DNA from: Amoebophrya sp. A120
Lineage: Eukaryota > Protista > Dinoflagellata
Reading direction: 5' to 3'
Length of the DNA stretch: 64,000 nucleotides
Assembly (NCBI GenBank): GCA_905178155.1
Contig: CAJINV010000002.1
Coordinates: forward strand, 10,272,146-10,336,145
Shown here: piece after piece, positions 33,001 through 64,000 of the stretch
Layout of the letters: each line of letters begins with the position of its first letter
How positions within the stretch are numbered: position 1 is the first letter of the stretch
Notes under the pieces: generated by a model
What the model was told of the DNA's origin: nothing
The model's database searches: none
Seen by the model: only the letters and a program-made list of their open reading frames with translations
Translations under genes and position numbers: made by a program

Positions 33001-36000
33001 TCGGCGTCGATCTGCTCGGTTTGGGCCAGCTGCGAGATGCGCGACCGAGTGCTGGTTTGGATCACGGGGGACAGCACCGTGCTGGTCGTGTGCCCGGACG
33101 CGACCGAGTCCGTGGACTGCGCTAGGAAGGCGGAGGAAGAAGCCCCTCCGGCTGCACCGATCATCTTCACGCTCTGCAGAAAGTCCGGCTGGGTGATCAG
33201 CTCGCGGCCGTTCACGTCAATCTTCCCGTTTTTCCAGTACAAGACCACGCTCGGCACGCCGCGCAGCCCCAGCTGCTGCATTAACACCTTCGTGCGCTGC
33301 TGGCTCGTCGGGAAATCCAACGCGAGCCACGGCATCAGCCCATAGTATTCGTTCCAGTCAGCCTGGCTATTGTCCAGGGAAGCAAACACGAACTTCACCG
33401 ATTTCCGAAGCAAATGCGCTCGGAGGTGTTTCTCGATCAAACGGGGGGTGAATCTGAGCAGTATTGTAAGAATTTTCGATACTGTAAAAATATTGGTTTT
33501 TAAGTTTTAGATAAATTAATATTATTCCGGAGCGTGTGTGTCGGGAGCGGCGAAAGTCCCCAGACCTGGTATATGATTTTTGTTTTCAATGGTTGTAGAA
33601 ATTAAAAAAAGCATATGTGTTCTATTGCGTTAATTAAATTTGCCACACATGTGCATCAGGTCGCGAATTAACTTCAACATAAACAAGAACTGATAGCAGA
33701 CACACACACACCCTGGGCACATGCAGGCCCACACAGGACAGCCATCAAAAAATATTTTTTTCCTCACACACGATGTTGCCCAAATTATTTTTCTCCAATA
33801 CACACAATCCGGGAACTAATTAATTTCTCAGAAACTCAGTTTCTGAGAAATTAATTAATTCCCGGACCGCCTCTGTGTAGCGCTCCGCTATAAGGAGGTC
33901 GGAACGGCGCCGAGCCGCTCTCCTGCTCGCCCCTGATTTCGGCAAGTTGGCGACGAGCAGGCGACGTTCGTGCGCGTTGGCTGATGGCTTGGCTGCGGCT
34001 TGAATGATCTTCAAAGCCAGGCAACCGGCCAAAGCATGAAGCGGCGCACCCACCGGGCCTGTCATCGGCCAAGGCACGGCGGCGCGCCCCCGCTGGGGCT
34101 GCGCGCCATCGCAGGCTGGCATTTTCCTGCGCCCTCCCGCCCGCGCGCGCAAAGACGGGGCCACGCTTGCGCTCGCCAGTCTGGCGCCCTGCCGGGGATG
34201 CTGGGGCTGCGCCCGGGGACCGATAAACACGCTTGCGCGTGAAGGCTGCAAAGGCCCTCACTTTTCTAGGTTGGGCTGTGTAGCGCACGCTAATCTTCCT
34301 GCGCGCGCTGCGCGCGCGCGCAGGTGGGTCACTGCGGGCGCAAGTGCAACCTCAAGCGCGCTCAGCGAGTACATGCGTGGGCGCAACGGTGAAGCGCGCC
34401 AAATCTTTGCGCGCGCACCAGCCAGACCACCAACACCGGCGGCATCTACTCCAGCGAACCATCAACCAAACGAAACCCAGCGCAGCCTCATGGTTTTCGC
34501 GCTAAAAGCGGCACATAGGTGATACGGATTTGCGATGTATAGGCTACAATGATTAATGGAGATAAGATATTGCAGCTTCGCGGACCGCCTGGCAGCCAGG
34601 AGCGCCGGCCAGCGCCGTCGTCGACTTTGCCCTCGTCCAGCTTGTGGTGGAATCCAGTGGAGGGCAGCGAGGGATCCGGCGCCGCCCCAACCTCCTTCTA
34701 CCTGAAGCGGACACACAGGTCTCCAGGAATTAATTAATTTCTCAGAAACTCAGTTTCTCAGAAATTAATTAATTACTGGAGAACCTGTATCGACGGATAT
34801 TTTTCCCGCCGGATGTGTGTGTTGGAAAAAATATTGCGCCACTGGTTGTGTCTGTCGTCCGAAACCGGCCGCCCCCTCTACCTGTATGGTCCGAAAAACG
34901 CTGCCCCGGGAGGTCTCTGTCCAAAAATGCCGTCTTCGCGGGCGTCGCCTGTCGCCGAAAATCCGCCGCTGCGTTGCGCCCGTCCCGGATCCGCTCCAAC
35001 CCGACAGGGGGACGCCGCTCCCGACACACACGCTCCGGAATGATATTAATTTATCTAAAACTTAAAAACCAATATTTTTACAGCCCCGAATTTTCTGATG
35101 AATGATGTGCGTGAACAAACGTATGAGAACGTCGATCGTGACTACGCACAGCTCACTAGTGGTCTTTGACTTTGACATTGCTAAGCAGGACCACGAAATA
35201 AAATACTTAATGCGGAGGAATCAGAATAGCGGATTCATTTTCAATACTGTCTGCAGGGGGGGCACCAGTGCGCGGAGAAGTACAGGACGACGCAGTCCGC
35301 GTCCTTCAGCTCCTCTTCGGTGTCCACATACACCGATTTCTGCGGGAACTTGTCGTGGTCCACCTTTTTCAACAACCTCGGACCGACCACCGCGCTCATC
35401 GGCATGCGGACGTTCCCAAAAGGATTCACGGACATCAGACTGTTCGAGGTCATTTGGTTGTCTTGTTCGTCGGACGAATTCCGGTCTTCTTCTCCGCTTT
35501 CACCGCTACTCTGTTCGCTCCCTTCACTGCCTTCCTCGTCGTGTCCGCCCTGGTCGTTGTTGCTAGATGATGAAGTAGCTCCTCCACGAACACGCGTGGC
35601 CTGGTCGCTCCTCGGAAGTCGAGCGCCTCCTGCCCGACGGTCTTGCGACTCGTGCTGCTCGACGCTGGTATTATACTCCTCGCTGGAGGAATCCTCGTCC
35701 CGCCGGTGCTCCACACCGGGAAAATGCCCCACGCCGCGGAGCTGGTGCTCGTGCCGTTCCCCGCGGCCGCCCTGCTGAGGTTGTAGTTGCTCTTCGCTAG
35801 AGTTGTTTGCCTCGACGCGAGGGGTAGAACTAGTGGCCGTCCCAGTGGTGGTGGCCGTCCACGTCGAGGAGCTTGAGGAGGAGGAGGCTCGTCCGGCAAT
35901 GCCCTGGAAGAAGTTTAGCAGAGAAAAGCCGCTGGCTCCCGAACGCACGGTGGTACTGCGGGCTAACGGTGGGTCGTCTTCGCGTTCCGGGTCGTGCTCG

Positions 36001-48365: not shown

Positions 48366-49456
48366 AGTCACAGCAGGGAAAAAACAAACCAAAACAGAAA
48401 GACAACAAGAAAAACACCACCTCCTCCGTTTTCCTGCGGGCCTGGGTAAAAGTCCTCGTACTGCTCGTGGTCGTAACCGGCGGCCGCCTGCATGTAGTAG
48501 TCCTGCATGTTGGCATATGGCGAGCAAAAAGTGTTTCACTGTAAGGATTTTGGCAGGTTTGCATCACAAGTTCCTTACACATGACAAAGAAAACTTGCCA
48601 TGCGAGATCCCTAAGGGAAAACAGAGCTAACAACTCAATGTCTTGCATGTGTAGCAAGACAAATGCGTCTTTGTTCCATTCTATGCATCACAAGTTTCCA
48701 GTGAAACAGTTTTTTCTCACGATATGGCAGCCGCGGCCCCCGCCGCACCGTACATGTCGGTCGCGTCTGCGCTGTATCAAGTGCAAAAGTGTCTGGGTCT
48801 GGAAGGATGCGAGGTTTGTCATGCGTGTCTGCCATGACTGAAGAGTTTGTGATGCGTGTCCAAGAAGAGACCCTCTTGCTTGTCATGCAAAACGCAGTTT
48901 CTCATGCGGAAAGCGCAACACTAAGCAGCGAAAATGTTTCTCATGCTTGGCTGTGCATTACAGAGAGTTCACTATTAACAACTCAGCATTACAAGTTTCC
49001 AGACCCAGACATATTTGCATTTGATACGCTGTTAAAATTTCCCATATTCGCCATCGCCGCCGCCATATTGGCCATCATGAAGTTCGTCGCCGGATCCGCT
49101 GCGCCCCCGCCCGGCGCCGCTCCCTGCGCCGCGGCGGCGTACATGCTGGCCAGCGCATTCGGGTCCATGGCAGCAGCAGCAGGATTTTGCTGTTGGTGCT
49201 GTTGCGCCGCCGGGTCAAAATAGGAAGGGTGCTGCAGCCAGGAGGAGTGCTGTTGCTGCTGCTGCGCATCGTGGTACCACTGCGCATTCTGGTCCTGCGC
49301 TGCGTAAAACATACCCATTTGCTGTTGAAAACTGTTGCCCTGTTGTTCCTGCTGTGTCTCACCCTTCTGCTGGCCCTGGTGTTCCATCATCTTCTCCTTC
49401 TGGTGCTGACGCTGTTCTTCGGCAGCCGCCGCCGCTGCCATGCCTGTTTGCATCAA
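48366..49456 (-). CDS. Q/A-rich low-complexity coding region split by two introners
   Basis: MMQTGMAAAA...MGNFNS|ADATDMYGAAGAAAA|NMQDYYMQAAAGYDHEQY reads in one frame with uniform composition after both elements are removed. The 3' end is uncertain. Confidence 0.6.
48516..48724. mobile_element. Introner-like TIR element, family E (209 bp), TSD TGGCA
   Basis: TGGCA at 48511-48515 and 48725-48729. Left end TATGGCGAGCAAAAAGTGTTTCACTG versus reverse complement of right end TATCGTGAGAAAAAACTGTTTCACTG. Confidence 0.9.
48775..49026. mobile_element. Introner-like TIR element, family A2, reverse orientation (252 bp), TSD CGCTG
   Basis: CGCTG at 48770-48774 and 49027-49031. The interior is the reverse complement of the 25342 and 51321 copies. 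Confidence 0.95.
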
Positions 49457-50699: not shown

Positions 50700-53600
50700 T
50701 CAAAACACGTCGTCAATCTCCTCATCCAGCGCATCCAGCCCCATGCGCTCCCTTTCCATTGGCTCGTACGCCGACATGAACTTTTCGATCGCACCCCACT
50801 TCCCTCGGTTCCAGCCGTCCTGTTTTCAACGTTGTTTCGCATAGCACCCGAACGATGGCATGAGCATGAAAAAATGGAACTATCATACACTGGCAGCATT
50901 TCACATACCGAACTACTTCGCGTCTCTTTTCCAGCGAAACCACTTGCTTCTATACCTCTGTTTTTGCCATCAGTTTATGGTTGATGATATCCAGCTATCA
51001 AATGTAAAAATGTCTGGGTCTGGAAGATTGCAACTTGTCATGCTAAATCTGCAGCATGCAAAAATCTGTGTTGCATGATTACCAAAAGCCGCCCAATTTT
51101 GACCAAGTCGGGAGGTAGTTTCTCATGCAGGATAGGCATTAGAAAGTTCTCGCAGAATCTGTCATGCTAGCTCCGGCATTCCAGACCTCATGGGTCATGG
51201 AAAAGCAGCATGACAAATCGCGCATTCTTCCAGACCCAGACATTTTTACACTTGATACCAGCTCGACGACGGTCTCGCCGTATCGGTAAAACCCCTTGTT
51301 AATTCGATGAAACGGCACGGTATCAAATGCAAAAATGTCTGGGTCTGGAAACTTGTGATGCTAAAAATGAATGGTATACGAACTGCATTACGCAGCTATG
51401 CATGACAAATTTTTTGGCTCCCATGTCTTACGTATTCCGCATGGTAAACTGCGTTTTTGCATGACAGGTAAGAGGGCCTTTTCGTGCCTATGTAACACAG
51501 ATTCTCAATTCATGCCAGACAAGCATGACAATAAACTTGCATTCTTCCAGACCCAGACATTTTTACAGTTGATACACGGCGGAGCCGGTCGAATTGTAGA
51601 ACTCAGCCAGGCGATTGTCCACTGGATCACGCAAATCCCATGGCGTGTAGGGAACCTTGTTCCACGTCAAAATTATGTTGGGCACAACTGGTGGCAAAAC
51701 TACGCTACGCTGGGCTACTGCAGCGAGGAGCGCGTGATGACTTGTAGCAACAATCTATTCGGACAGCCGAAGGCGGCGCCTGGAGGTGCTTCTATGCAAG
51801 CATCTCTAGTATTATTTGAAAAAAAATCAGTACCGCTGGCCGTGTGCTCGCATAGAGCTGCCGTGTGTGCAAATGATGCTGCCCGCCACCGCGATTCGCG
51901 CTGTTTCGTGACCCGCCGCTCTGTTTGGTGTTTCATACACAATTCCAGTTATTCAGAGCAGCTTGTCGTTTCTGAGCAATGTTTCGCATGCCACGAAAGC
52001 GACAACGACAAATACTTCACTTTTTACGCACAAGAGCAGGGCGTGTCATTTCTACTTCTTACCGTCGCCGAATATCGGCTTGCATTCTGTTCCCCCGGCG
52101 TTCGCACGACGACTCCCGCACCGGCGTCCCTTTCTGCCAGCATCTTGTGTAGTCTGTCGATCTCCCGTGCCTGTTCCTCGTTTTCGGATTGTAATTCTGC
52201 TACCTGCCGCTGCAACTGCTCCACCTGGTTCATCGCCGCAGATTGCTGCCCGACGGAGAGATTGGTCGTGTTTAGAGAGGTAGAGTTGCGCGACACAGGG
52301 CCGGTAGTTTTGTTGGTCAAGACAGACCTGCTGTTTACATTTGTCATTGCTCCTCCGGTGGTGGTACTGTTTCGCGCGGCTGGTTGCGCGAAGTGTGGCC
52401 CCGATCGGGAAGAGGAGGATCTGGAGTTCCGCGATTGGCTGGCTTGTTCCTGGTGCTCTTGCGGATCCCCTTGTGATGCACTGTGTAGGTGTTGCAGTTC
52501 CTCTTGCTGCGATACTTGATGTTCAGTCACACTGTAGTTGCTCCTGGACGACCCCTGATGTCCTTGACTGAAATTGTTCTGCGTATACGCATTTCCATTA
52601 CGTCTCACCAATCCAGCACCTGACATGTTGAAGGTTCCGGCACTTCCACTACTGGGGAAGAACTGCTGCGGTAGTTGCTGTGGTGCGGGAACCCCAACGG
52701 GCCCGGGTGGCGGCAAGCCTCGGATCACATTGTTCCCTGGTGCGGGCCGGTAGAAGTTCCCGACTTTGTTGCTCGCTGCAGAACTGTTGGCTGTTTCGCC
52801 ACCCACCGATTGCTGTGGCAGCACGAACTGGGGCATAGACTGCTGTGGCTGGTACACGGGAACGCCTCCCGGCACGTTTTGCTGCCCGGGGAAAGATATC
52901 AACTGTAAAAATGTCTGGGTCTGGAAGAATGGAAGATTTGTGATGCAGGTTTTCCATCACCCATGAGTTCTGGAATGCGAGACCCAGCATGACAGATTTT
53001 CTGAGGTCTCTATCATCCCTTTCCTGCATGAGAAACTCCCTCTCAACCTGGTCAAAAGCAGACAGCTTTTGGTACTCACGCAACACAGATTTTTGGATCA
53101 TTCAGATTTAGCATTACAAGTTCTAACCTTCCAGACCCAGACATTTTCACATTTGATAAAAGAGAGCATGGGCTGCTGTAGCTGCGTAGGAACAACTCCA
53201 GGTACGACACGACTGGGCACCTTGACACGGAAACACCTCGACAGTGAACTCCCGACGAATTTTGCAAAACCCCTAGTCGATTCTTTGTCGATTCCTTATC
53301 CAAAACGAAAATCGCACGCACGTGCTCCAATGTCTACGCTCACGACTGTTGTCGTGCGCCACACGGCCAGAGAGAAGGCCGGCGACTTGAAACCACACAA
53401 AGCCAGCGCTTTGCTCCAAGTCGCTGGCAGTTTTTGGCGTCCCCTTTCGGTGTCGAACAATTGCACGCCGCGCTGCGGTTCTACTGTATCGAACCGGCTG
53501 CGCGGCTTTTGCACTGTGCGTCATCTTCCGGCTCGAGCCTTGCTTTGTACACTTGTACGAAATGGAGGCCCCGCTCACCCTGCGGCGTGGCGATTTTGCA

Positions 53601-54599
53601 CAATTGTACGAAAAGCGGCGTGGCACGTGGCGTCACATCGCCACCCTGCGGCGTAGCGATTTCGTACATTACCATCGGGGGGATGGCGGCGCCAGCAGGC
53701 GACGACCTAAAGGAGCAAGCCGCTTTTCGTACAATTGTACGAAACAGGGGACAACACTGTCCGCCACTTTCGCAGGCGTGCTTGCATTCTGCGGGCCGCG
53801 GCAGCGCTGCCCGCGCGCCCAGTGTCCGCGCGCGCCCAAGTGCATCCACAGCAGCGGCGCGGAGCCTCTGTCGATTCCTTGTCGATTCCTTGTCGATTCC
53901 TTGTCGATTCTTTGTCGATTCCTTGTCGATTCCTTGTCGATTCCTTGTCGATTCTTTGTCGATTCCTTGTCGATTCCTTGTCGATTTTTTCTCATTTCGT
54001 ACAATTGTACGAAATCAGCAGCTCTGAAAGAAAATGTCACTTTCCTAATTTCGTACAATTGTACGAAATCAATATTTCTAAAAGAAACAGCGAATTTCGT
54101 ACAATTGTACGAAATTGTACGAAATCGACAAAGAATCGACAAAGAATCGACAAGGAATCGACAAGGAATCGACAAAGAATCGACACGGACTCGACAGAGG
54201 TCACCCCGAAACATGGGCGCAACGAGTGGAATCGACAAGGAATCGACAACGACCACCGAGAAGCAAGGCAGCAGAGCCGTCGCATTAGGCACAAACACTT
54301 GTGCTCTATATTCATGACAACGGTGGTCATGCTTCTCGAACTGTTTATTGTATGCGCTACTTGGGTTGTACACGGCAGTGGACCAAGCACGCAGGCAGAA
54401 AACAAGGAAGATATCGGCCAAAATCGACAAGGAATCGACAGAAAATCGACAGAGAATCGACAGCAATTCGACGACTTCAGCTTGTCGAGGTGTTCCGGTG
54501 CCAAGGCTGCTGTAGCTGCGCAGGAACAACTCCAGGTACGACACGACTGGGCACCGAGGCCTGTCGAGTGCTGGTGGACGTCGATGTGGGGAAAAACAT
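50700..54599 (-). CDS. Protein with a low-complexity N-terminus, coiled coil and C-terminal GAR/Gas2-like domain; carries four inserted elements
   Basis: Reconstructed C-terminus DPVDNRLAEFYNSTGSAV|PFHRINKGFYRYGETVVEL|DIINHKLMAKTE|DGWNRGKWGAIEKFMSAYE resembles GAR domains. N-terminus MFFPTSTSTSTRQAS|VPSRVVPGVVPTQLQQPMLSF|PGQQ. GT-AG intron at 50820-50955. The junction between ~51760 and 52060 is unresolved. Confidence 0.65.
50996..51257. mobile_element. Introner-like TIR element, family A1 (262 bp), TSD CCAGC
   Basis: CCAGC at 50991-50995 and 51258-51262; near-perfect family A TIR. Confidence 0.95.
51321..51574. mobile_element. Introner-like TIR element, family A2 (254 bp), TSD CACGG
   Basis: CACGG at 51316-51320 and 51575-51579; family A TIR. 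Confidence 0.95.
52897..53158. mobile_element. Introner-like TIR element, family A1, reverse orientation (262 bp), TSD AAAGA
   Basis: AAAGA at 52892-52896 and 53159-53163. The interior is the reverse complement of the 50996 and 20062 copies. Confidence 0.95.
53222..54504. mobile_element. 1283-bp foldback-like TIR element flanked by a 51-bp direct duplication of exon sequence
   Basis: 53171-53221 equals 54505-54555 with 1 mismatch. Ends TTGACACGGAAACACCTCGACA / TGTCGAGGTGTTCCGGTGCCAA. Contains internal 11-bp arrays and palindromes. Confidence 0.88.
53869..54249. repeat. Opposed 11-bp tandem arrays (GTCGATTCYTT)n and (AATCGACAARG)n around three ATTTCGTACAATTGTACGAAAT palindromes
   Basis: About 11 units at 53869-53987, inverse units at 54123-54184 and 54230-54249. 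Palindromes at 53994, 54048 and 54094, and a 20-bp copy at 53725. Confidence 0.9.
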
Positions 54600-55139: not shown

Positions 55140-57030
55140 TTATATCGAGGAAGACAACGGTGCATTCGCGGCTGCAGGTGGGGGAGCCGACTGGTTCGCA
55201 GCCGGAGCAGGAGCAGCTGCCGTTGCTGTGGGGGGTGGATTTCCAGCTCCCGCAGATGGCGCCGCAGGGGCGCCTCCTCCGCTTGTCGGAGCTGGTGCAG
55301 GAGGTGCGGCTACGGTGTCTGGGTGCTGCAGTCTACGCAGCTTGTCAATCACCGTGTTTTTGTCCTGGATGAACTGCTGATCTTGTTGGCGATCGGGTAT
55401 CAGGAAGGTATCCAGGAAGTCCACGAGCCGGTCGCGATTTTGGTGCCTGGCAATTACAGTTTTGTTGAATAAATTCAACACAAGCAATTATTTTCTTTTC
55501 GTTATTGCAGAACTAACGCAACATGTTGAAAACAGCTTCATCTTGACGCAGATGGCACCTGCAGATCATGATAGATAAAGGGTAACAGCAAACAACCAAA
55601 TACAGTATTATCGTGATTTTCCTCGGTTTATTCGGATTTGCGGCGAAGATTTTGAAGACGTGGAAGGCTTCAAACTGGATGGTTTTTGACGACGACCGCA
55701 GAAACGTCATGTGCACCTTCAAGTACTCCTCGGAGTTTATGTATTGCAGCATGATCTGCATGAATTGCCGGTCCAGCAGCATGTCACTCAGCAGCTTCAG
55801 GGATTGGCGCTGGCAAATGTAGAGATCTTCCTGCGCGTTGTGCTCGCTGTACGTGCTCAGCAAAATGTCGTGGTAGTTTCGGAAGAATTCGTCAAAATTC
55901 GCCAAAATCCAGCGCGCGGAAAGCTGCTTCGCGCGGCACAAAAGTTCCTTCACAGACAGAAAAGCGTCTGACGCAAGATCGAAATTGTCGCTGGTGCGCG
56001 CTATTTCGAACAACTGGTAGATGATTTTCTCATCGAGCGCGTGCTTGTTGACCCCTGGACACCGGCAGAGCTCCCGTAGCACGATGCCGTAATTCAGTGA
56101 AATTTCGGGCGACCGCGCGTACCGCTCAGCGATCAAAGGGATCAGCTTTTGCGAGACCTGTGGACGGATGAAAGCAGTCACTCTAGCTATTGAAATTGGT
56201 GATGGCACATAGAAGTTCTTGCACTTAATCAACAATACTAGCTAGAGCTCGGGCACGCTCACTGATGCATCACGATCTGATGAGAGTTGGAACGCCCAAC
56301 GGAATAACCTTATACAGAAGGACGTAGCTCCATCAAAATTCTCTGACTATACCACGTATTGCTCGAACGGCGTGTACTCTGCTTCTGAGTTCACCGGCGG
56401 CCCTGCGGAGGTGGCGCCGCCGCCGGCCGAGGATGGAGCGGTACTGGAGCTGCTGCCGCCCGCGATGCCGGTCTGCGATCGGCAGATGTTGGCGAACAGT
56501 GTCATGACGTCTTTTCGACCTTCAAAGTCGATCTCGGGCAGGGTGACGAGAAGCGGCTGGAGCAGGTTCATCTCGGTCGTTATTCGCGGAATCCAATCCT
56601 GCTGCCGCTCAATCACTTGTGCCAGCTGCCCAACTACTTGTACCAAGTCCCCGACGTTCTGTGCCTGGGAATGGAGATTGGAAATTATCGTATTTGAAAA
56701 TATTGGCAAATTTTCCTGTGCAAGGAAAGAAACTAGAACTCCCGGTGGCGGTACAAAGGCCAAACGTTGAGTAAGTTCTAAGTTCCGGGAGCAGGTGCAG
56801 GATGTCAAAATTTACAAAAAAAAAATCTTTTTTACCTGCAGCGCCACCTGCATTTTCTCGCACAGTTCCACCATCTTTTTGTGCGCGTCGCAGTCGCTTG
56901 AAAATATCGAGATCAGAATAAAAGCCTCAGAGTCGGGGGCCAAGACAAAATTCAGAAAGATATATTTATAACTATGGCAACTACAAACAACAGGGCTCAA
57001 CAACATTGCTCTGCTGAAAAAATTCGCCAA
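55140..57030 (-). CDS. MO25: MO25/CAB39 family scaffold protein, multi-exon (start uncertain)
   Basis: IDFEGRKDVMTLF, ISLNYGIVLRELCR, FDLASDAFLSVKELL, QRQSLKLLSDMLLDR, SKTIQFEAFHVFKIFAANPNKP. Exons are separated by GT-AG introns. Confidence 0.9.
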
Positions 57031-60000
57031 AGAAAGGTAGTACCAAGTTCCAAAAAAATCTAAAAATCGAACATAGTGATGTCACAGTCTACTGACACGG
57101 AACTTGTGCTCAGATCAGATCAGAATATTACATAGCATAGCATAGCATAGCATGGGGTTTGGCGTGTCGGAACTTTAAGAGTGCAGCCGACTTTTTCATG
57201 AACTAGAGCTCGACCACGCGTACTATTCTAGTAGAGGCGGCTAACAGTGATGCTTGTACCCCGCCCGCGATACAAATTCCCCGGGCCGTATAGCATGCCT
57301 ATTGGGTGGGACTGGGAATTTCGGCCACTGAACAAAACCCGACAAGCACACCGAAAGTCTTATACCGGTCGATGCTAAAGCTTCACGCGCCGCAACCAGA
57401 GCACCGGCTGATTACCCTAAACCCTGTTTAAGTTATCAAGCACTTACTTTTTACTATTCGTCTAATACAAGTTCCCATTTGCATGCATCTACACCTCGGC
57501 CTGGATCATTTTGATCTTTTTCTTTTCGTTTTTTTTTTATGTACCCTGAACCCCTCCATCAAACTTCCCATGTACGTGCAAATTGCCCGGCCCACACGGA
57601 CGCTTCTTTTCCCTAGTGGGAATATACTCGTGTACTGGTGGGGACAGCCCGCTGCGCACTGGACTCGCCGATGGGAATTTACGATCTAGTTGTTTTTTGT
57701 TTTTCGTACGAAAACTTTTTGATCTACTTGAACTGCAGCACTGTAACGCTATGTATAAAAAAGAATTTTTACCACCTTCTTGTTTTTTTTGGCCGAGGTG
57801 TCTAAGGCGCTACTAGTGCCACTGATCCGCACAGTGGGCTTCCGCGCTACGAATATTTGTAGGTCGTCGAAGGTGGGCGCTACGCGGAATGTACTACACG
57901 AGCAGGCCTATGGTGGCGGCCACGGCGATGCAGTCACGCAGACCGCCATGCAAAACTAACTAGCCTCGCCATGAGGTCCCCGCGAACGCCACGCCTGTCG
58001 CCGCATCTGCTGACGCAACAGCAGTGCGAGGGATGGACTATGCTAAGCCTCTTCGGGCATAAGTTATTCATCCCTTTTTGTAGTAGTACTACCGGTCGGC
58101 GTGCTATGTACGGTTAAGTCCCTAGAGCACCAGGGGAGCTAAAAAACAAGTTCTTCACCGCCGGGCGCTACACTAGTACGATTGTTTTCCTTTTTTTTAC
58201 TAGAGCTATCGCCAAACCCCTTCACGTTCACGCCTCTGTCTCAAATTCTTTTACGTGTTTCCTTTCACTTTCTCGCACAAAATGTCACTTTTTTTTTGTT
58301 TTCCGCCACGAACCCTTGCTGCTCACAGCTTCCTCAACCTCAAGCGCGTTTTCTTCTTGGAAAACGCAGCACACCGCGTCGCTGCCTAGGGGTCGTCTGC
58401 ATGCCCCCGGGGCACCTTCCGCCTAGATCACGCCGGCCAGCTCCACTAGCGCGCATAACCTGAGATGAAGTTTTTTCCCGCAAAGCAGCACCGCAGTGCT
58501 GCCGCCTGAATGGAAGATCGAGCTCATCCTTCAACTACTATTTTGCATATCTGTGTTTCACATCGATCAATGCAAACTAATCAAGATAAATCAAAGTATA
58601 CTAATCAAAATAAATATAAGTAAACACTACTGCGCATGACAAGATCATATGAATTAGTATCCTTTTTCCGTTTCGCCGCGCGCTCCCTTCGTCTCTCGAT
58701 TGGTATGCCGTCTCGCGTATGTTCTCGCTGTACGGGTTGCGTGTCCTGGTATCAATTGGGTTCCACTTGCTGCACATCAGGTGTCGCATGCAGGTCCAGG
58801 AAGCGTCTTCTGGCAGGTGTGTTGCGTTCGGCCATGTGGAGGTCGACTATAGATCCCGGGGGCAGCAAGCCCGTGCTCTATCGCGGCAAGCCACCTCCCT
58901 GGCGGCGCTTGCGGTGTGTGGCTCCTTTCTCGCGTGCGCGTGCGCGAGAATTACCGTTTGGTATGCTCGCACTCGTTGGTGCGGCGGTACAACAGTTTTT
59001 TTGGAGAGAAACTCAAAAGACCCCCAGTGAGAGATAGATAGATAGATGGAACTGGACAGACTAGTAGAAAGAGAAAACAAAGAAGAAAGAGAGAGAGCTA
59101 CGGTTATCCACTACCTGTGCTGCAAAATAAAAACGCTGTTAGGAGGTAAAGGAAAAGGAAAAAAGACATATTACGATCTTGACTGAGAGCTAGCAATTTT
59201 GTATACAGTTATACTCGTGTGCGAAAAGTACAATTTTAGGTGGGGACCAGGCGAGTTGTACGAAGTCTAGTTTTTGAACTTGTTGTAGTGAGGAGAACTA
59301 ACTTTTTCGTGTAATTTTCGGACCATAGCATGCGGACAAGGCGAGACGTTTCTACTGGCTTTTCCGCGGAGAAGTTTACTTTTAGAAAGCGACACTCTTT
59401 CTGCAGCGAACTATCACTAGACCAGCCTCAGTTTCCACTTTGTTTCCTGTAGCAACACGGCCCTCACCTCCGTTCGCTCGTATGTCTGCGTATCCTTGAA
59501 AAAGAACAGGCTGAACTCGCATATAGCGTTGTGATTTGCAAAACACAAATCACCTACCGCGTGTTCATCCTGGGGGGCTTAGTGTTACCAAATTGCTCCG
59601 CCGTCGTGTGTGAGGGCCGTGTTGCTTGTGACTCTGCATCTACTGCTGCGGGTCCCGCGCGCACCGAGCGCCCTTGGTCCAAAGTCTACTGTCAAAGTCT
59701 ACTGACACGGAACTTCTGGAAGTCGACCGATACAGACGCGGTTTCACGAAATTGAATCTCCGCGATTCAAAGGGAGGCCGCTAAACGGTTTTAGAGAGGT
59801 CTTACAAGACCCTTACAAATGCACGCCGTAGCATCGCGCTTAGAGTTTTACGAGACCCCTTTTAAAGGGGTCCCCTAAACGGAATCGCGATGGTGTCGTT
59901 GCTTTTTGAAAAAAACACATCATAGCACCGCGATCATTAGTGAAAAACCAAATTGGGATCTCATTTAGATTATCACATTCATAATCTGCCACGTGGTGAC

Positions 60001-60120
60001 GCGCGGAAGCTGTGGACAACGGAGGACCAAAACGGAGTCGATTCAGGATGGATATGTGCCTATTTGCTGTCTTAATAAAGATTTTTTTGAATTATTGAAG
60101 TCATAATCCTCCAGACCATC

Positions 60121-60397
60121 TCATATCTTATCTCTTCTCTTGCACACCGTGCAACACAAAATCGGCTTCAACGGGATGTTGCTCGCTTTCGACGGGCTGT
60201 TCGGTAAAACGGATGCTCCTTGGCTGTTTTTCTCACCCGCATTCTTATCTCTTCTCCTGCACACCGTGCAACACAAAACCGGCTTCAACACTTTTCCCCA
60301 AAGAATTTCCTTCACGACAACACTCACGACGAATTGCAACCCAGTATTCACATACACGAAATCGGTAAATTTGTCCAAATAGCTCACCGTCTTCGTC
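60121..60397 (-). pseudogene. Orphan 3' exon fragment (hydrophobic helix plus duplicated LKPxLCCTVCxRRDK), repeated at 61112-61388 and 62103-62379
   Basis: Open frame TKTVSYLDKFTDFVYVNTGLQFVVSVVVKEILW... directly abuts a family A element whose other end and upstream exon are missing. Confidence 0.45.
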
Positions 60398-60642
60398 TAT
60401 CAAATGCAAACATGCCTGGGTCTGGAAAGTTGGAACTTGTAATGCTGGCGTTACATTCCTGCGAAATCTGTATTGCATGACCAACAAAAGCGGCAGCCTC
60501 TCTTGTCATACAAGAACGCTGTTTCTGATGCGGAATTCGGATTTGATAAAACGTTCTGCAAACTTGTCATGCTTTACTGGATAAGAAAATGGTTCCATCA
60601 CGCACATTTTAGCATCACAAATTTCCAGACCCAGACATATTT
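60398..60642. mobile_element. Truncated family A introner; further copies at 61389-61633 and 62380-62624
   Basis: Left TIR TATCAAATGCAAACATGCCTGGGTCTGGAA is intact. The right TIR stops at TTCCAGACCCAGACATATTT, and there is no second TSD. Confidence 0.85.
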
Positions 60643-63389
60643 AGCATCACAAAAATTTTAGCATCACAAATTTCCAGTGCTGTCAAAGTCTACTGACACG
60701 GAACTTCTGGAAATCGACCGATACAGACGCGGTTTCACGAAATTGAATCTCCGCGATTCAAAGGGAGGCCGCTAAACGGTTTTAGAGAGGTCTTACAAGA
60801 CCCTTACAAATGCACGCCGTAGCATCGCGCTTAGAGTTTTACGAGACCCCTTTTAAAGGGGTCCCCTAAACGGAATCGCGATGGTGTCGTTGCTTTTTGA
60901 AAAAAACACATCATAGCACCGCGATCATTAGTGAAAAACCAAATTGGGATCTCATTTAGATTATCACATTCATAATCTGCCACGTGGTGACGCGCGGAAG
61001 CTGTGGACAACGGAGGACCAAAACGGAGTCGATTCAGGATGGATATGTGCCTATTTGCTGTCTTAATAAAGATTTTTTTGAATTATTGAAGTCATAATCC
61101 TCCAGACCATCTCATATCTTATCTCTTCTCTTGCACACCGTGCAACACAAAATCGGCTTCAACGGGATGTTGCTCGCTTTCGACGGGCTGTTCGGTAAAA
61201 CGGATGCTCCTTGGCTGTTTTTCTCACCCGCATTCTTATCTCTTCTCCTGCACACCGTGCAACACAAAACCGGCTTCAACACTTTTCCCCAAAGAATTTC
61301 CTTCACGACAACACTCACGACGAATTGCAACCCAGTATTCACATACACGAAATCGGTAAATTTGTCCAAATAGCTCACCGTCTTCGTCTATCAAATGCAA
61401 ACATGCCTGGGTCTGGAAAGTTGGAACTTGTAATGCTGGCGTTACATTCCTGCGAAATCTGTATTGCATGACCAACAAAAGCGGCAGCCTCTCTTGTCAT
61501 ACAAGAACGCTGTTTCTGATGCGGAATTCGGATTTGATAAAACGTTCTGCAAACTTGTCATGCTTTACTGGATAAGAAAATGGTTCCATCACGCACATTT
61601 TAGCATCACAAATTTCCAGACCCAGACATATTTAGCATCACAAAAATTTTAGCATCACAAATTTCCAGTGCTGTCAAAGTCTACTGACACGGAACTTCTG
61701 GAAATCGACCGATACAGACGCGGTTTCACGAAATTGAATCTCCGCGATTCAAAGGGAGGCCGCTAAACGGTTTTAGAGAGGTCTTACAAGACCCTTACAA
61801 ATGCACGCCGTAGCATCGCGCTTAGAGTTTTACGAGACCCCTTTTAAAGGGGTCCCCTAAACGGAATCGCGATGGTGTCGTTGCTTTTTGAAAAAAACAC
61901 ATCATAGCACCGCGATCATTAGTGAAAAACCAAATTGGGATCTCATTTAGATTATCACATTCATAATCTGCCACGTGGTGACGCGCGGAAGCTGTGGACA
62001 ACGGAGGACCAAAACGGAGTCGATTCAGGATGGATATGTGCCTATTTGCTGTCTTAATAAAGATTTTTTTGAATTATTGAAGTCATAATCCTCCAGACCA
62101 TCTCATATCTTATCTCTTCTCTTGCACACCGTGCAACACAAAATCGGCTTCAACGGGATGTTGCTCGCTTTCGACGGGCTGTTCGGTAAAACGGATGCTC
62201 CTTGGCTGTTTTTCTCACCCGCATTCTTATCTCTTCTCCTGCACACCGTGCAACACAAAACCGGCTTCAACACTTTTCCCCAAAGAATTTCCTTCACGAC
62301 AACACTCACGACGAATTGCAACCCAGTATTCACATACACGAAATCGGTAAATTTGTCCAAATAGCTCACCGTCTTCGTCTATCAAATGCAAACATGCCTG
62401 GGTCTGGAAAGTTGGAACTTGTAATGCTGGCGTTACATTCCTGCGAAATCTGTATTGCATGACCAACAAAAGCGGCAGCCTCTCTTGTCATACAAGAACG
62501 CTGTTTCTGATGCGGAATTCGGATTTGATAAAACGTTCTGCAAACTTGTCATGCTTTACTGGATAAGAAAATGGTTCCATCACGCACATTTTAGCATCAC
62601 AAATTTCCAGACCCAGACATATTTAGCATCACAAAAATTTTAGCATCACAAATTTCCAGTGCTGTCAAAGTCTACTGACACGGAACTTCTGCTAGTGAAA
62701 TGCAAATCTCTGCCATTCCATTTTCCACATCGCAGGGGCTTTTTTTCCGCATCGTGTTGTACTTGTTTCATGCGACGGGTTGCGAAAATGGCTATGGCAT
62801 CAACGGCGCTCAATCAGATTCAGAAAACGAACAACAAAAACTTGGACTTTTCAGGTACTGCGGTATGGGGTTAATCACGTTGGCAATCTTGTTTGACGAG
62901 ATGGAGTAACGGTGCCAATCGGGGGAGGTACGGACAGCAGCATCAGCTTCCGATTTCGAAAAAAATTGACGAATCTTGAATCGAAAGTGAACTAAGCCAG
63001 ATGTTGTGGTGAAAAACCAAGTAGAAAAATCCGGATAGATTCATTGTTTCCAAAAGCAAAAGAATAAAACTCAAATAAACTAGAACTAGTGCTTCAGATG
63101 AACTTGTAGCAGTCTTATTTCAACAAGATGAAAGGTTCCAACCTACACCAGGTATTGATTCATTGATTCGTATCTGTCGATGAGCTACGTTTTTGACATC
63201 TTCTATACTTGTGAGAAAGTTTCTGTTTCGACGATGAACTTGATAGCCTAGTCGACTAATTTCGTCACGGTCGCAAAACAAAAACTCCCAAAGTTGGCGC
63301 CCTCCAAGGAATCTTTTAAAGTGCCCAAGGTACACCGACGTCTGCTTTGTATGGATTTTTTGTATTGCAACTGCAACCTTTGATCCTTC

Positions 63390-63428
63390 TGCTGTCAAAG
63401 TCTACTGACACGGAACTTCTGCTAGTGA
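63390..63428. repeat. Fifth copy of the junction motif (39-bp identity to 62660-62698); a degenerate copy lies at 57080-57110
   Basis: TGCTGTCAAAGTCTACTGACACGGAACTTCTGCTAGTGA; at 57080 the sequence is TGTCACAGTCTACTGACACGGAACTTGTGCT. Confidence 0.9.
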
Positions 63429-64000
63429 GATAATTCTAAGTGATAAAATCTTCCAAGAAAAAAGAGACTCAGTGTCAGCTTTGCTTCCATACAAACTTCA
63501 TCTCTCAGGAATTAACATCGCCAAACAAAGTAGGGCGGGAAAAAAAATAGAGTTGAGTCAGGAAAAACGGAGTACGTGCCAAAAGGCGGGAAAAGTCTGA
63601 CTATTCACAAACAGTCTGCACAAAACCAAAAGCTCAACTTGCTTCGACATAAGGAAGTGCTATAATCTTGTTGCTGTGCTCCAAAAAAAAACCACTTCGC
63701 TGTGTGCGAGGTGGCGAATGAACACACGAAAGGACGCATTTGCTGTTCACTCGAATCTACTTTCCCGGTTGCTCTCTAGAAGAAGCAAAACCGCGCCCGT
63801 CCCCATGCGAAGCCCACGACACCTTCTGCCTACGCAAAGGTTCGCCGTGCGCGGCTCCGTTTCAATTGTTTCAATGCCCGCTCGGAAGGTTTTGATGTTT
63901 CTACGTATCGAGAAGGATGACAAGGCGCACTCGCGGTGCAAAGTGAAAGGCACAGTTGAGCAGTTGTTCACGAATTGATGCCTTTCCATCTTCCCTATCG

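Follow-up and report, generated by a model that had tools for sequence, protein, structure and literature searches.

Motif copies between unrelated inserts upstream of Mo25/CAB39 in Amoebophrya sp. A120: likely a repair scar with captured DNA

The window analysed here is a 64-kb (64,000-nucleotide) stretch of the genome of Amoebophrya sp. A120, a parasitic dinoflagellate, and the features of the locus that we studied are listed in Table 1. Directly upstream of a gene for Mo25/CAB39, the best protein match of which is from Amoebophrya sp. A25 (70% identity), lies an array in which a 30-37-base motif recurs at one locus. Exact copies of the 30-mer start at 59689, 60680, 61671, 62662 and 63392, and a sixth copy with three mismatches starts at 57079; the window thus holds six matches, compared with none in 100 shuffles. 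All of the copies named in the original prediction were found, i.e., five motif copies, a degenerate copy, and a partial duplicate at 59680, which shows a 13-bp period. The copies separate three unrelated inserts, designated E, A and B. We agree with the earlier argument that simple tandem duplication is insufficient, since unrelated cargo lies between the motif copies. The further insert E (57111-59679, 2.6 kb), which also lies between two motif copies, had been missed.

Table 1. Features of the array and its surroundings (window coordinates).
Feature	Coordinates	Strand	Remarks
Mo25/CAB39 gene, two open frames	55513..56811	-	Pfam PF08569; start probably near 57000
M0, degenerate target copy	57075..57110	+	presumed native left flank retained
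Microsatellite tail of E	57110..57153	-	(TCAGA)3 then (ATAGC)4 on + strand; varies among family copies
E body	57154..59679	-	multicopy; likely non-autonomous retroelement
Re-copied motif snippet, right junction of E	59680..59688	+	9 bases
M1	59689..59718	+	30-bp copy
Cargo A, copy 1	59719..60675	-	likely 3' untranslated region, last exon, truncated introner and re-copied introner snippets
M2	60676..60709	+	with native left flank AGTG
Cargo A, copy 2	60710..61666	-	
M3	61667..61700	+	
Cargo A, copy 3	61701..62657	-	
M4	62658..62701	+	with right-hand extension common with M5
Cargo B	62692..63391	+	likely from a gene present elsewhere: intron end, last exon, 3' untranslated region
M5	63390..63431	+	with presumed native right flank
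Right flank C	63432..64000	.	diverged relatives elsewhere in the genome

The length common to the motif copies varies with the junction, from 30 to about 41 bases, and junction positions differ by up to 11 bases. Left edges agree within 4 bases, and right edges scatter over 7. M0 shares 33 of 36 bases with the copy at 62658-62693, and all three substitutions set it apart from the remaining copies. The native left flank is kept on M2-M4, and the right-hand extension of M4 and M5 is common to 41 of 42 bases over 62660-62701. The junctions also have a polarity, in that re-copied snippets occur at the right ends of E and A and at none of the left ends. When its distribution was judged by contig depth arithmetic, with a filter that removes some contigs, the motif showed no excess depth in the sequencing runs and looks confined to the array locus. 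Exact scans of metagenome contigs and of viral contigs gave no match to the motif core. The motif also agrees over 10 bases with the end of an element at 53222, which we judged likely to be chance.

The three 991-bp units were found to be bounded by the motif, as had been predicted, and differ by a single base (59722). Contig depth over the unit was 127.5 and 133.8 in run X1, versus 44.5 for a single-copy contig, and 88.4 and 93.2 in run X2, versus 28.8-30.1. These ratios of 2.9-3.2 indicate a copy number of 3, with X1 and X2 representing one sample, possibly the source of the assembly as well. A contig from another sample (run X3) spans the unit-to-unit junction, and an X1 contig crosses M4 into B. 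Within the first copy of A, the introner is truncated (60398 to about 60642) and its right terminal repeat is short of the last ~10 bases, confirming the broken introner described originally. Re-copied introner snippets occupy 60643-60677, with two introner restarts at the right end. The "orphan exon" of that description corresponds to a stop-free frame of 91 codons (60124-60396, minus strand), which is presumably the last exon of A; it had no Pfam match, and a search of the longer candidates, itself weak evidence, found no protein.

The suggestion of captured chromosomal cargo was borne out in that both units match DNA elsewhere in the genome. Variant-bearing contigs near single-copy depth were observed over the 991-bp unit in runs X1 and X2, and paralogous contigs of 15,971, 5,593 and 2,685 bases were found for B, the 730-bp unit. 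B appears to contain an intron acceptor at 62854 and a 17-codon last exon (62856-62909), and a loose contig end lies at 62855. An X3 contig related to B runs on past 63376 as ACTCTCCTTCTGCGTGAACTAGTGAGATCG, without the motif. This string matches the right flank at 10 of 10 bases and, across a short gap, the last 6 bases of the motif (chance of such a 10-mer match within 20 positions, 1.9e-5), so that the relative has 16 bases of interrupted homology to the right edge of B, as read from a 30-base loose end; this end belongs to a single contig, and the RNA nature of the run is a guess. Both A and B retain intron sequence, have no tail and lie in opposite orientation relative to their inferred genes; being intron-bearing and facing opposite ways, they indicate DNA templates.

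E is likely a non-autonomous retroelement. Its summed depth reaches 467, versus a baseline near 29, and a Pfam scan of its ORFs gave no coding match. An E-related RNA contig (a loose end in run X9) has the dinoflagellate spliced leader joined at 59119-59121, and the leader string occurs in 28 publications; run X10 covers only parts of E, at a depth of 2. Over 61660-64000, runs X11 (raw RNA reads) and X9 are uninformative, as they gave no reads and no contigs, respectively. Variable microsatellites precede a common end in all four aligned copies (E and three related ones). The motif is absent from both relatives of E that we compared (L001, 90%; L002, 95%), with best matches having 12-13 mismatches of 30. 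The copy of E at this locus is flanked by M0 and M1, and neither relative has a flanking direct repeat of at least 13 bases within 4 kb, their far ends being undefined; long duplications are therefore at most a putative property of E. Two further inserts in the window lie between 47- and 51-bp direct repeats. A stem-loop in the terminal part of E has no folding advantage over shuffled sequences (z 0.38-0.65). The idea that the motif is a spliced-leader relic was dropped, as it does not match the leader seen on the E-related RNA contig.

A dyad core of the motif, with arms kept in the degenerate copy, had also been proposed. The dyad TGTCA-N8-TGACA is indeed present six times, once per motif copy, but it is at chance level. 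Of the 30-mers sampled from the window (n=9139), 14% also have a dyad with 5-bp arms, as do 19% of the 36-mers (n=9138), and survival of the dyad in M0 has a P of 0.36. The arms are 5 bp without extension, and the motif folds no better than shuffles (z 0.06-0.72).

Altogether, the array is likely a repair scar, in which the landing site was re-copied with each DNA patch taken into the break. We regard it as an even call whether, more specifically, the motif is ordinary host DNA that repair of a staggered break turned into a target-site duplication, the inserts being copied in by microhomology-primed synthesis and not by a recombinase. Microhomology and re-copied snippets are found at the array junctions, as expected for microhomology-primed templated insertion. 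Breaks with 3' overhangs are reported to yield tandem duplications (PMC8355091), and templated genomic DNA is reported at L1 reciprocal ends (PMC11702581).

From the observed motif copies, inserts, relatives elsewhere and junction letters, we infer the following order of events. The staggered break would have had 3' overhangs of ~36 bases. Two nicks ~36 bases apart would have opened the site, probably in a target-primed insertion of E, the tail of which abuts M0. The free right-hand end would then have used two templates: the source of B, where the 16 bases of interrupted homology served for priming, and that of A, where a 2-base microhomology did so and restarts were abortive. Following each capture, the strand would have returned to its own filled-in end, re-copied the motif and run off at one common left edge. 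The close agreement of the left edges, and the presence of the snippets on that side, would be explained in this way. An extra slipped re-copy (59680) would have accompanied the joining of the end to the 5' terminus of E, and the motif-bounded 991-bp unit would have tripled recently, by slippage or unequal exchange.

Several observations stand against this explanation, among them the lack of long flanking repeats in the two relatives of E mentioned above. The substitutions found only in M0 have a P of 0.019, given equally old, neutrally mutating copies, and a single event would therefore need junction-linked mutation or an earlier, separate insertion. Furthermore, A and B are 700-960 bp long and distant in origin, whereas at L1 insertions templated pieces of <250 bp and local origin are typical (10.1101/2024.08.27.596794). 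We saw neither an empty allele nor, among the contigs listed, the E-M1 junction. A literature search, which left subscription papers mostly uncovered, returned no description of this locus or of such an array in Amoebophrya.

Alternatively, a sequence-specific endonuclease, e.g. that of an R1-like retroelement, might recut the site serially, with each round adding a retro-copy or captured DNA together with a copy of the target. This is unlikely in our judgment, but deserves consideration: the architecture fits that of R1 arrays, separate events would accommodate the diverged M0, and the cut positions concur within 4-7 bases. However, the target is apparently single-copy and has no RNA family match, unlike the known multicopy targets. 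Rfam gave no match at gathering score in the window, and a tRNA search found no tRNAs; six weak snoRNA matches in Rfam (E 4.1-4.6, within 56500-64000) were judged to be chance. A and B are tailless and keep their introns, and the native left flank on M2-M4 forces growth at the M0 end, which would make M0 the youngest and yet the most diverged copy. None of the 78 ORFs scanned in the window is a nuclease gene, although action from elsewhere is conceivable. It is rather improbable that a sequence-specific staggered cutter revisits a single-copy 36-base site upstream of Mo25, each round capturing kilobase-scale host DNA and regenerating the site, which would amount to a polar, CRISPR-array-like acquisition locus in a eukaryote.

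We consider it similarly improbable that the locus is a patchwork of duplicated segments, in which separate junction repairs added the motif copies as filler, with another copy close by as template. Right flank C likewise has relatives elsewhere, and M5 can be interpreted as M4 copied in place of 5 bases between two microhomologies. Nevertheless, this requires that the same 30 bases served as filler on at least three occasions and that 16 bases of homology arose by chance within 730 bases of M4, and it leaves the common polarity unexplained.

Helitrons typically capture gene fragments and form tandem arrays, and CTAG followed by T does occur after M4 and M5, 11 bases past the dyad. A Helitron-like 3' terminus (hairpin, CTAG, then T) capturing flanking DNA is nevertheless very improbable: CTAG is present in only two of the six copies, the hairpin is no better than shuffles, the motif lacks excess depth and is missing from the two E relatives, and the same CTAG-containing 10-mer is found after the B relative, where there is no dyad.

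The original prediction named first an att-like, integron-like site for the integration or amplification of DNA circles; the enzyme at work would be a tyrosine or serine recombinase. An identical motif beside different cargo, with a 5-8-5 dyad, was in its favor. We now think it scarcely credible, as the dyad does not exceed chance, the sequence after the B relative (one loose end) lacks the motif, and the junctions are variable, with re-copied snippets at two and no fixed crossover point; this junction heterogeneity largely refutes it. The proposed search for recombinase genes near the motifs was also negative, with none of the 78 ORFs scanned in the 64-kb window, which ends 580 bases past the last copy, matching a recombinase, transposase or reverse transcriptase family.

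Finally, a dispersed repeat driving unequal crossover, or an assembly artefact, was suggested by the near-perfect identity of the three units and, for the artefact, by the possibility that X1 and X2 are the assembly's own sample, but it is barely tenable given the depth ratio of about 3 in two runs, the X3 and X1 junction contigs described above, and a motif depth that lends no support to the abundant repeat originally considered. Unequal exchange brings in no new cargo; it probably did triple A.

Among known systems, the R1 non-LTR retrotransposon arrays of Drosophila rDNA have target duplications of 14 or 33 bases between the elements, and further R1 copies enter an existing duplication (PMC2718515, 10.1101/158386). 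The present array resembles them in the apparently duplicated target between inserts, the rearranged target at 5' junctions and the probable later expansion by unequal exchange. The differences are that R1 arrays repeat a single element within a multicopy gene, whereas the target at this locus seems to be single-copy and intron-bearing host fragments without a tail account for two of its three inserts. Complex L1 insertions share with our proposal the staggered nicks with 3' overhangs, target duplication, microhomology and templated DNA on the reciprocal end, with duplications mostly of 12-18 bases and templated pieces mostly <250 bases and local (PMC11702581, 10.1101/2024.08.27.596794). The repeated return to the target between captures that we propose is not described in the passages of the L1 papers that we consulted. 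In tandem duplication at breaks with 3' overhangs, and in templated insertion by polymerase-theta-type end joining, an overhang of tens of bases is likewise duplicated, with microhomology (PMC8355091). In the array, by contrast, the captured pieces measure 700-960 bases, and there are six occurrences of the duplicated segment. Abortive priming cycles and restarts are a feature of polymerase-theta-type end joining. Prokaryotic insertion with long target duplication is reportedly recombinase-free, between long landing-site copies, and is said to involve a single insertion per site, whereas here there are several. Integron attC/attI and tyrosine-recombinase att sites also place a repeated short site between unrelated cassettes, but we found no recombinase, fixed crossover, motif on the cargo relative or significant dyad.

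On the repair-scar reading, the locus is an unusually legible record of a break end capturing gene fragments, in a lineage whose DNA repair has been little studied. It also exposes a spliced-leader-capped, non-coding, retroelement-like family. A general tendency of this genome to form long target duplications (30-50 bases) is suggested, as two other inserts in the 64-kb window also lie between long direct repeats. If the hits were instead serial and site-specific, an unknown nuclease would be building arrays of host DNA at one address, which would be new.

The array is real, and its order is M0-E-M1-A-M2-A-M3-A-M4-B-M5-C, in which six motif copies (M0-M5) separate E, a 2.6-kb element running from the degenerate copy M0 to M1 at 59689, the cargo of the three 991-bp units (A), the cargo of the 730-bp unit (B) and the right flank (C). 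The 30-mer motif was found in five exact copies and one copy with three mismatches (6 matches versus 0 in 100 shuffles). The partial motif duplicate at 59680 and the dyad TGTCA-N8-TGACA of the original prediction were both recovered, the dyad in all six copies. Likewise, the sequence agreed with three motif-bounded 991-bp units, differing among themselves by a single base, and contig depth was ~3x single-copy. Per contig, unit depth was 127.5-133.8 versus 44.5 in sequencing run X1 and 88.4-93.2 versus about 29 in X2, a ratio to reference of 2.9-3.2 across these two runs, which represent the same sample and possibly the source of the assembly itself. The unit-to-unit junction lies on a 1021-base contig in X3, from a different sample, and a contig likewise of 1021 bases spans the unit in X6. 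The sole difference among the units, position 59722, is G in unit 1 and A in all X2 and X6 contigs listed; this G may reflect a mistake in the assembly or a variant that was collapsed.

The 991-bp cargo had been proposed to be a captured fragment with an orphan exon and a broken introner (an inverted-repeat intron-generating element). A does contain a truncated introner and was shown to have relatives elsewhere in the genome (variant contigs covering parts of it at depth 41-49, among contigs listed); the proposed exon amounts to a 91-codon minus-strand frame, for which Pfam and protein comparison found no homolog. Two X1 contigs matched B: one of 15,971 bases at 62711-62938, with 17 differences and 6 gap letters, and one of 5,593 bases at 62909-63376, with 3 differences and likewise 6 gap letters. 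An X3 contig matched B over 62855-63376, and the point where it departs coincides with an AG preceded by pyrimidine-rich sequence (62854), in the fashion of a spliced exon, downstream of which a 17-codon frame ends in a stop; among the 40 of 60 rows listed, the three differences within this frame (62885, 62894 and 62908) were silent or stop-to-stop. Because of these features, B likely contains the 3' portion of a plus-strand gene, intron included. Since intron sequence is kept and the orientations are opposite, the sequences argue for A and B having been copied from DNA templates. The Mo25/CAB39 gene adjoins the array (best protein match, Amoebophrya sp. A25, 70%), and every long frame with a Pfam hit in the window is on the minus strand. 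Upstream of Mo25, at least 7 kb is gene-free. Flank C (63440-64000) has diverged relatives elsewhere in X1 and may itself be a duplicated segment.

E is multicopy, with summed depth, a rough guide only, rising to 467 at 57132-57247 and 417 at 58872-58987 versus a baseline near 29. A metatranscriptome contig from X9 matched 58671-59121 with one difference and then continued into a loose end, which, reverse-complemented, is the dinoflagellate spliced leader (the same string occurs in 28 papers); its junction with E resembles a minus-strand splice acceptor. Relatives of E occur at two metagenome-contig loci (L001 and L002; 90% and 95% identity), and differing microsatellites precede its conserved end in 4/4 aligned copies, an arrangement typical of 3' tails in non-LTR retroelements. 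In four X2 contigs the tail is joined to 58950, a short form with an internal deletion, and a perfect 17-base inverted repeat (arms 142 bases apart) lies inside E at 59451-59626.

Coordinates of repeat families and repeat-flanked inserts
Feature	Position	Characteristics
E family	window 57110-59679; L001:2275-4120; L002:3269-4124	non-coding; RNA spliced-leader-capped; variable microsatellite tails
Insert between long direct repeats	53171/54505	51-base repeats, 50/51 identical
Insert between long direct repeats	60126/60243	47-base repeats
~255-base introner family	48775-49026, 50996-51257, 51321-51574, 52897-53158	ends TATCAA...TTGATA

Long direct repeats also flank other inserts in the window. 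The 1.28-kb element at 53171-54555 has terminal inverted repeats of ~24 bases and contains an 11-base unit arrayed in inverted orientation; its direct repeats far exceed the 2-11 bases that cut-and-paste transposons usually leave. At 60126-60289, and also in units 2 and 3, the repeats flank a 70-base insert, and the 117-base period leaves a putative minus-strand frame open. An element with long inverted ends lies at 33500-35075, where a pair of palindromic direct repeats, each 59 bases long (33808-33866 and 34722-34780, 92% alike), flanks 855 bases. The introner family carries a 5-base flanking direct repeat at 4/4 complete copies examined; its summed depth in X1 exceeds 100,000, an extremely high abundance. 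Introners with inverted repeats, as in this window, are reported for Amoebophrya in PMC7789003, and together with the Mo25 match they suggest an Amoebophrya host; PMC12130899 and PMC11453091 give background on introner classes and retroposition.

Because the motif stands on both sides of unrelated inserts, has slightly variable edges and is missing from the inserts' relatives, its copies look like target-site duplication. The shared sequence begins at -4 (M2-M4), -2 (M5) or 0 (M1) and ends at +30 (A), +32 (E) or +37 or more (B). At its right end, E has 9 bases of the motif re-copied, A has introner sequence restarted twice, and B has an 8-base word in common with the opposite end of the motif. 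The X3 relative of B reads on as ACTCTCCTTCTGCGTGAACTAGTGAGATCG, without the motif; this continuation matches the motif's last 6 bases and, past a short gap, flank C at 10/10 bases (chance of such a 10-mer match, P=1.9e-5). By hand estimate, ~1 such interrupted 16-base match is expected per genome of roughly 100 Mb, which we take to be the host's size, and this homology is consistent with what a broken end seeking homology would find. Furthermore, the motif does not belong to E, as its best match in L001 and L002 had 12-13 mismatches of 30.

The explanation of motif recurrence that we favour, and wholly infer, is one event of many cycles, in which the right-hand end would capture cargo, loop back to its own filled-in end, re-copy the motif and run off again. 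Staggered nicks with 3' overhangs are described in PMC8355091 as giving duplications of tens of bases, and PMC11702581 and 10.1101/2024.08.27.596794 indicate that templated genomic DNA can join ends made by retroelements. We favour the multi-cycle event because it would account for the common polarity and explain why M1-M5 are identical and why M2-M4 carry the native left flank. It is weakened by the three substitutions, all of which separate M0 from the other copies (P=0.019 under equal age), and by a flanking direct repeat of at least 13 bases at 0/2 relatives of E. Its chief competitor is serial insertion, in which the target would be regenerated and hit again, much as happens in R1 arrays, whose elements are separated by 14- or 33-base duplications (PMC2718515 and 10.1101/158386).

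The att-like site of the original prediction was not supported: background sampling of the window gave perfect dyads of at least 5 bases at rates of 14% (9139 30-mers) and 19% (9138 36-mers), the sparing of the dyad arms by all three substitutions was at chance (P=0.36), motif folding was at shuffle level, and recombinase, transposase or reverse transcriptase families matched 0/78 ORFs scanned (40 in 55.5-64 kb and 38 chosen long ones elsewhere; 136 were listed at 120 codons or more). An abundant dispersed repeat is excluded by residual depth at the motif bins, a test whose filter drops some contigs: in X1, the M3 bin kept 4 depth-bases, i.e. no residual depth, once the one listed contig was subtracted, and the M4 and M5 bins kept 927 and 2520, close to the depth expected from local copies plus the contig of the locus itself (by hand); the M1 bin in X2 kept 1938, less than local copies could contribute (by hand). 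No exact match to the motif turned up in scans of metagenome contigs or of viral contigs; the motif looks locus-specific, though it may have a few extra copies.

Altogether, we consider it probable that one of the two target-duplication readings, the multi-cycle event or serial insertion, is correct; serial, site-specific insertion in its boldest form seems quite unlikely. The component parts of the array are already known from other systems; in the literature searched, we found no description of a target confined to one locus whose six copies surround three inserts unrelated to one another, including two host fragments.
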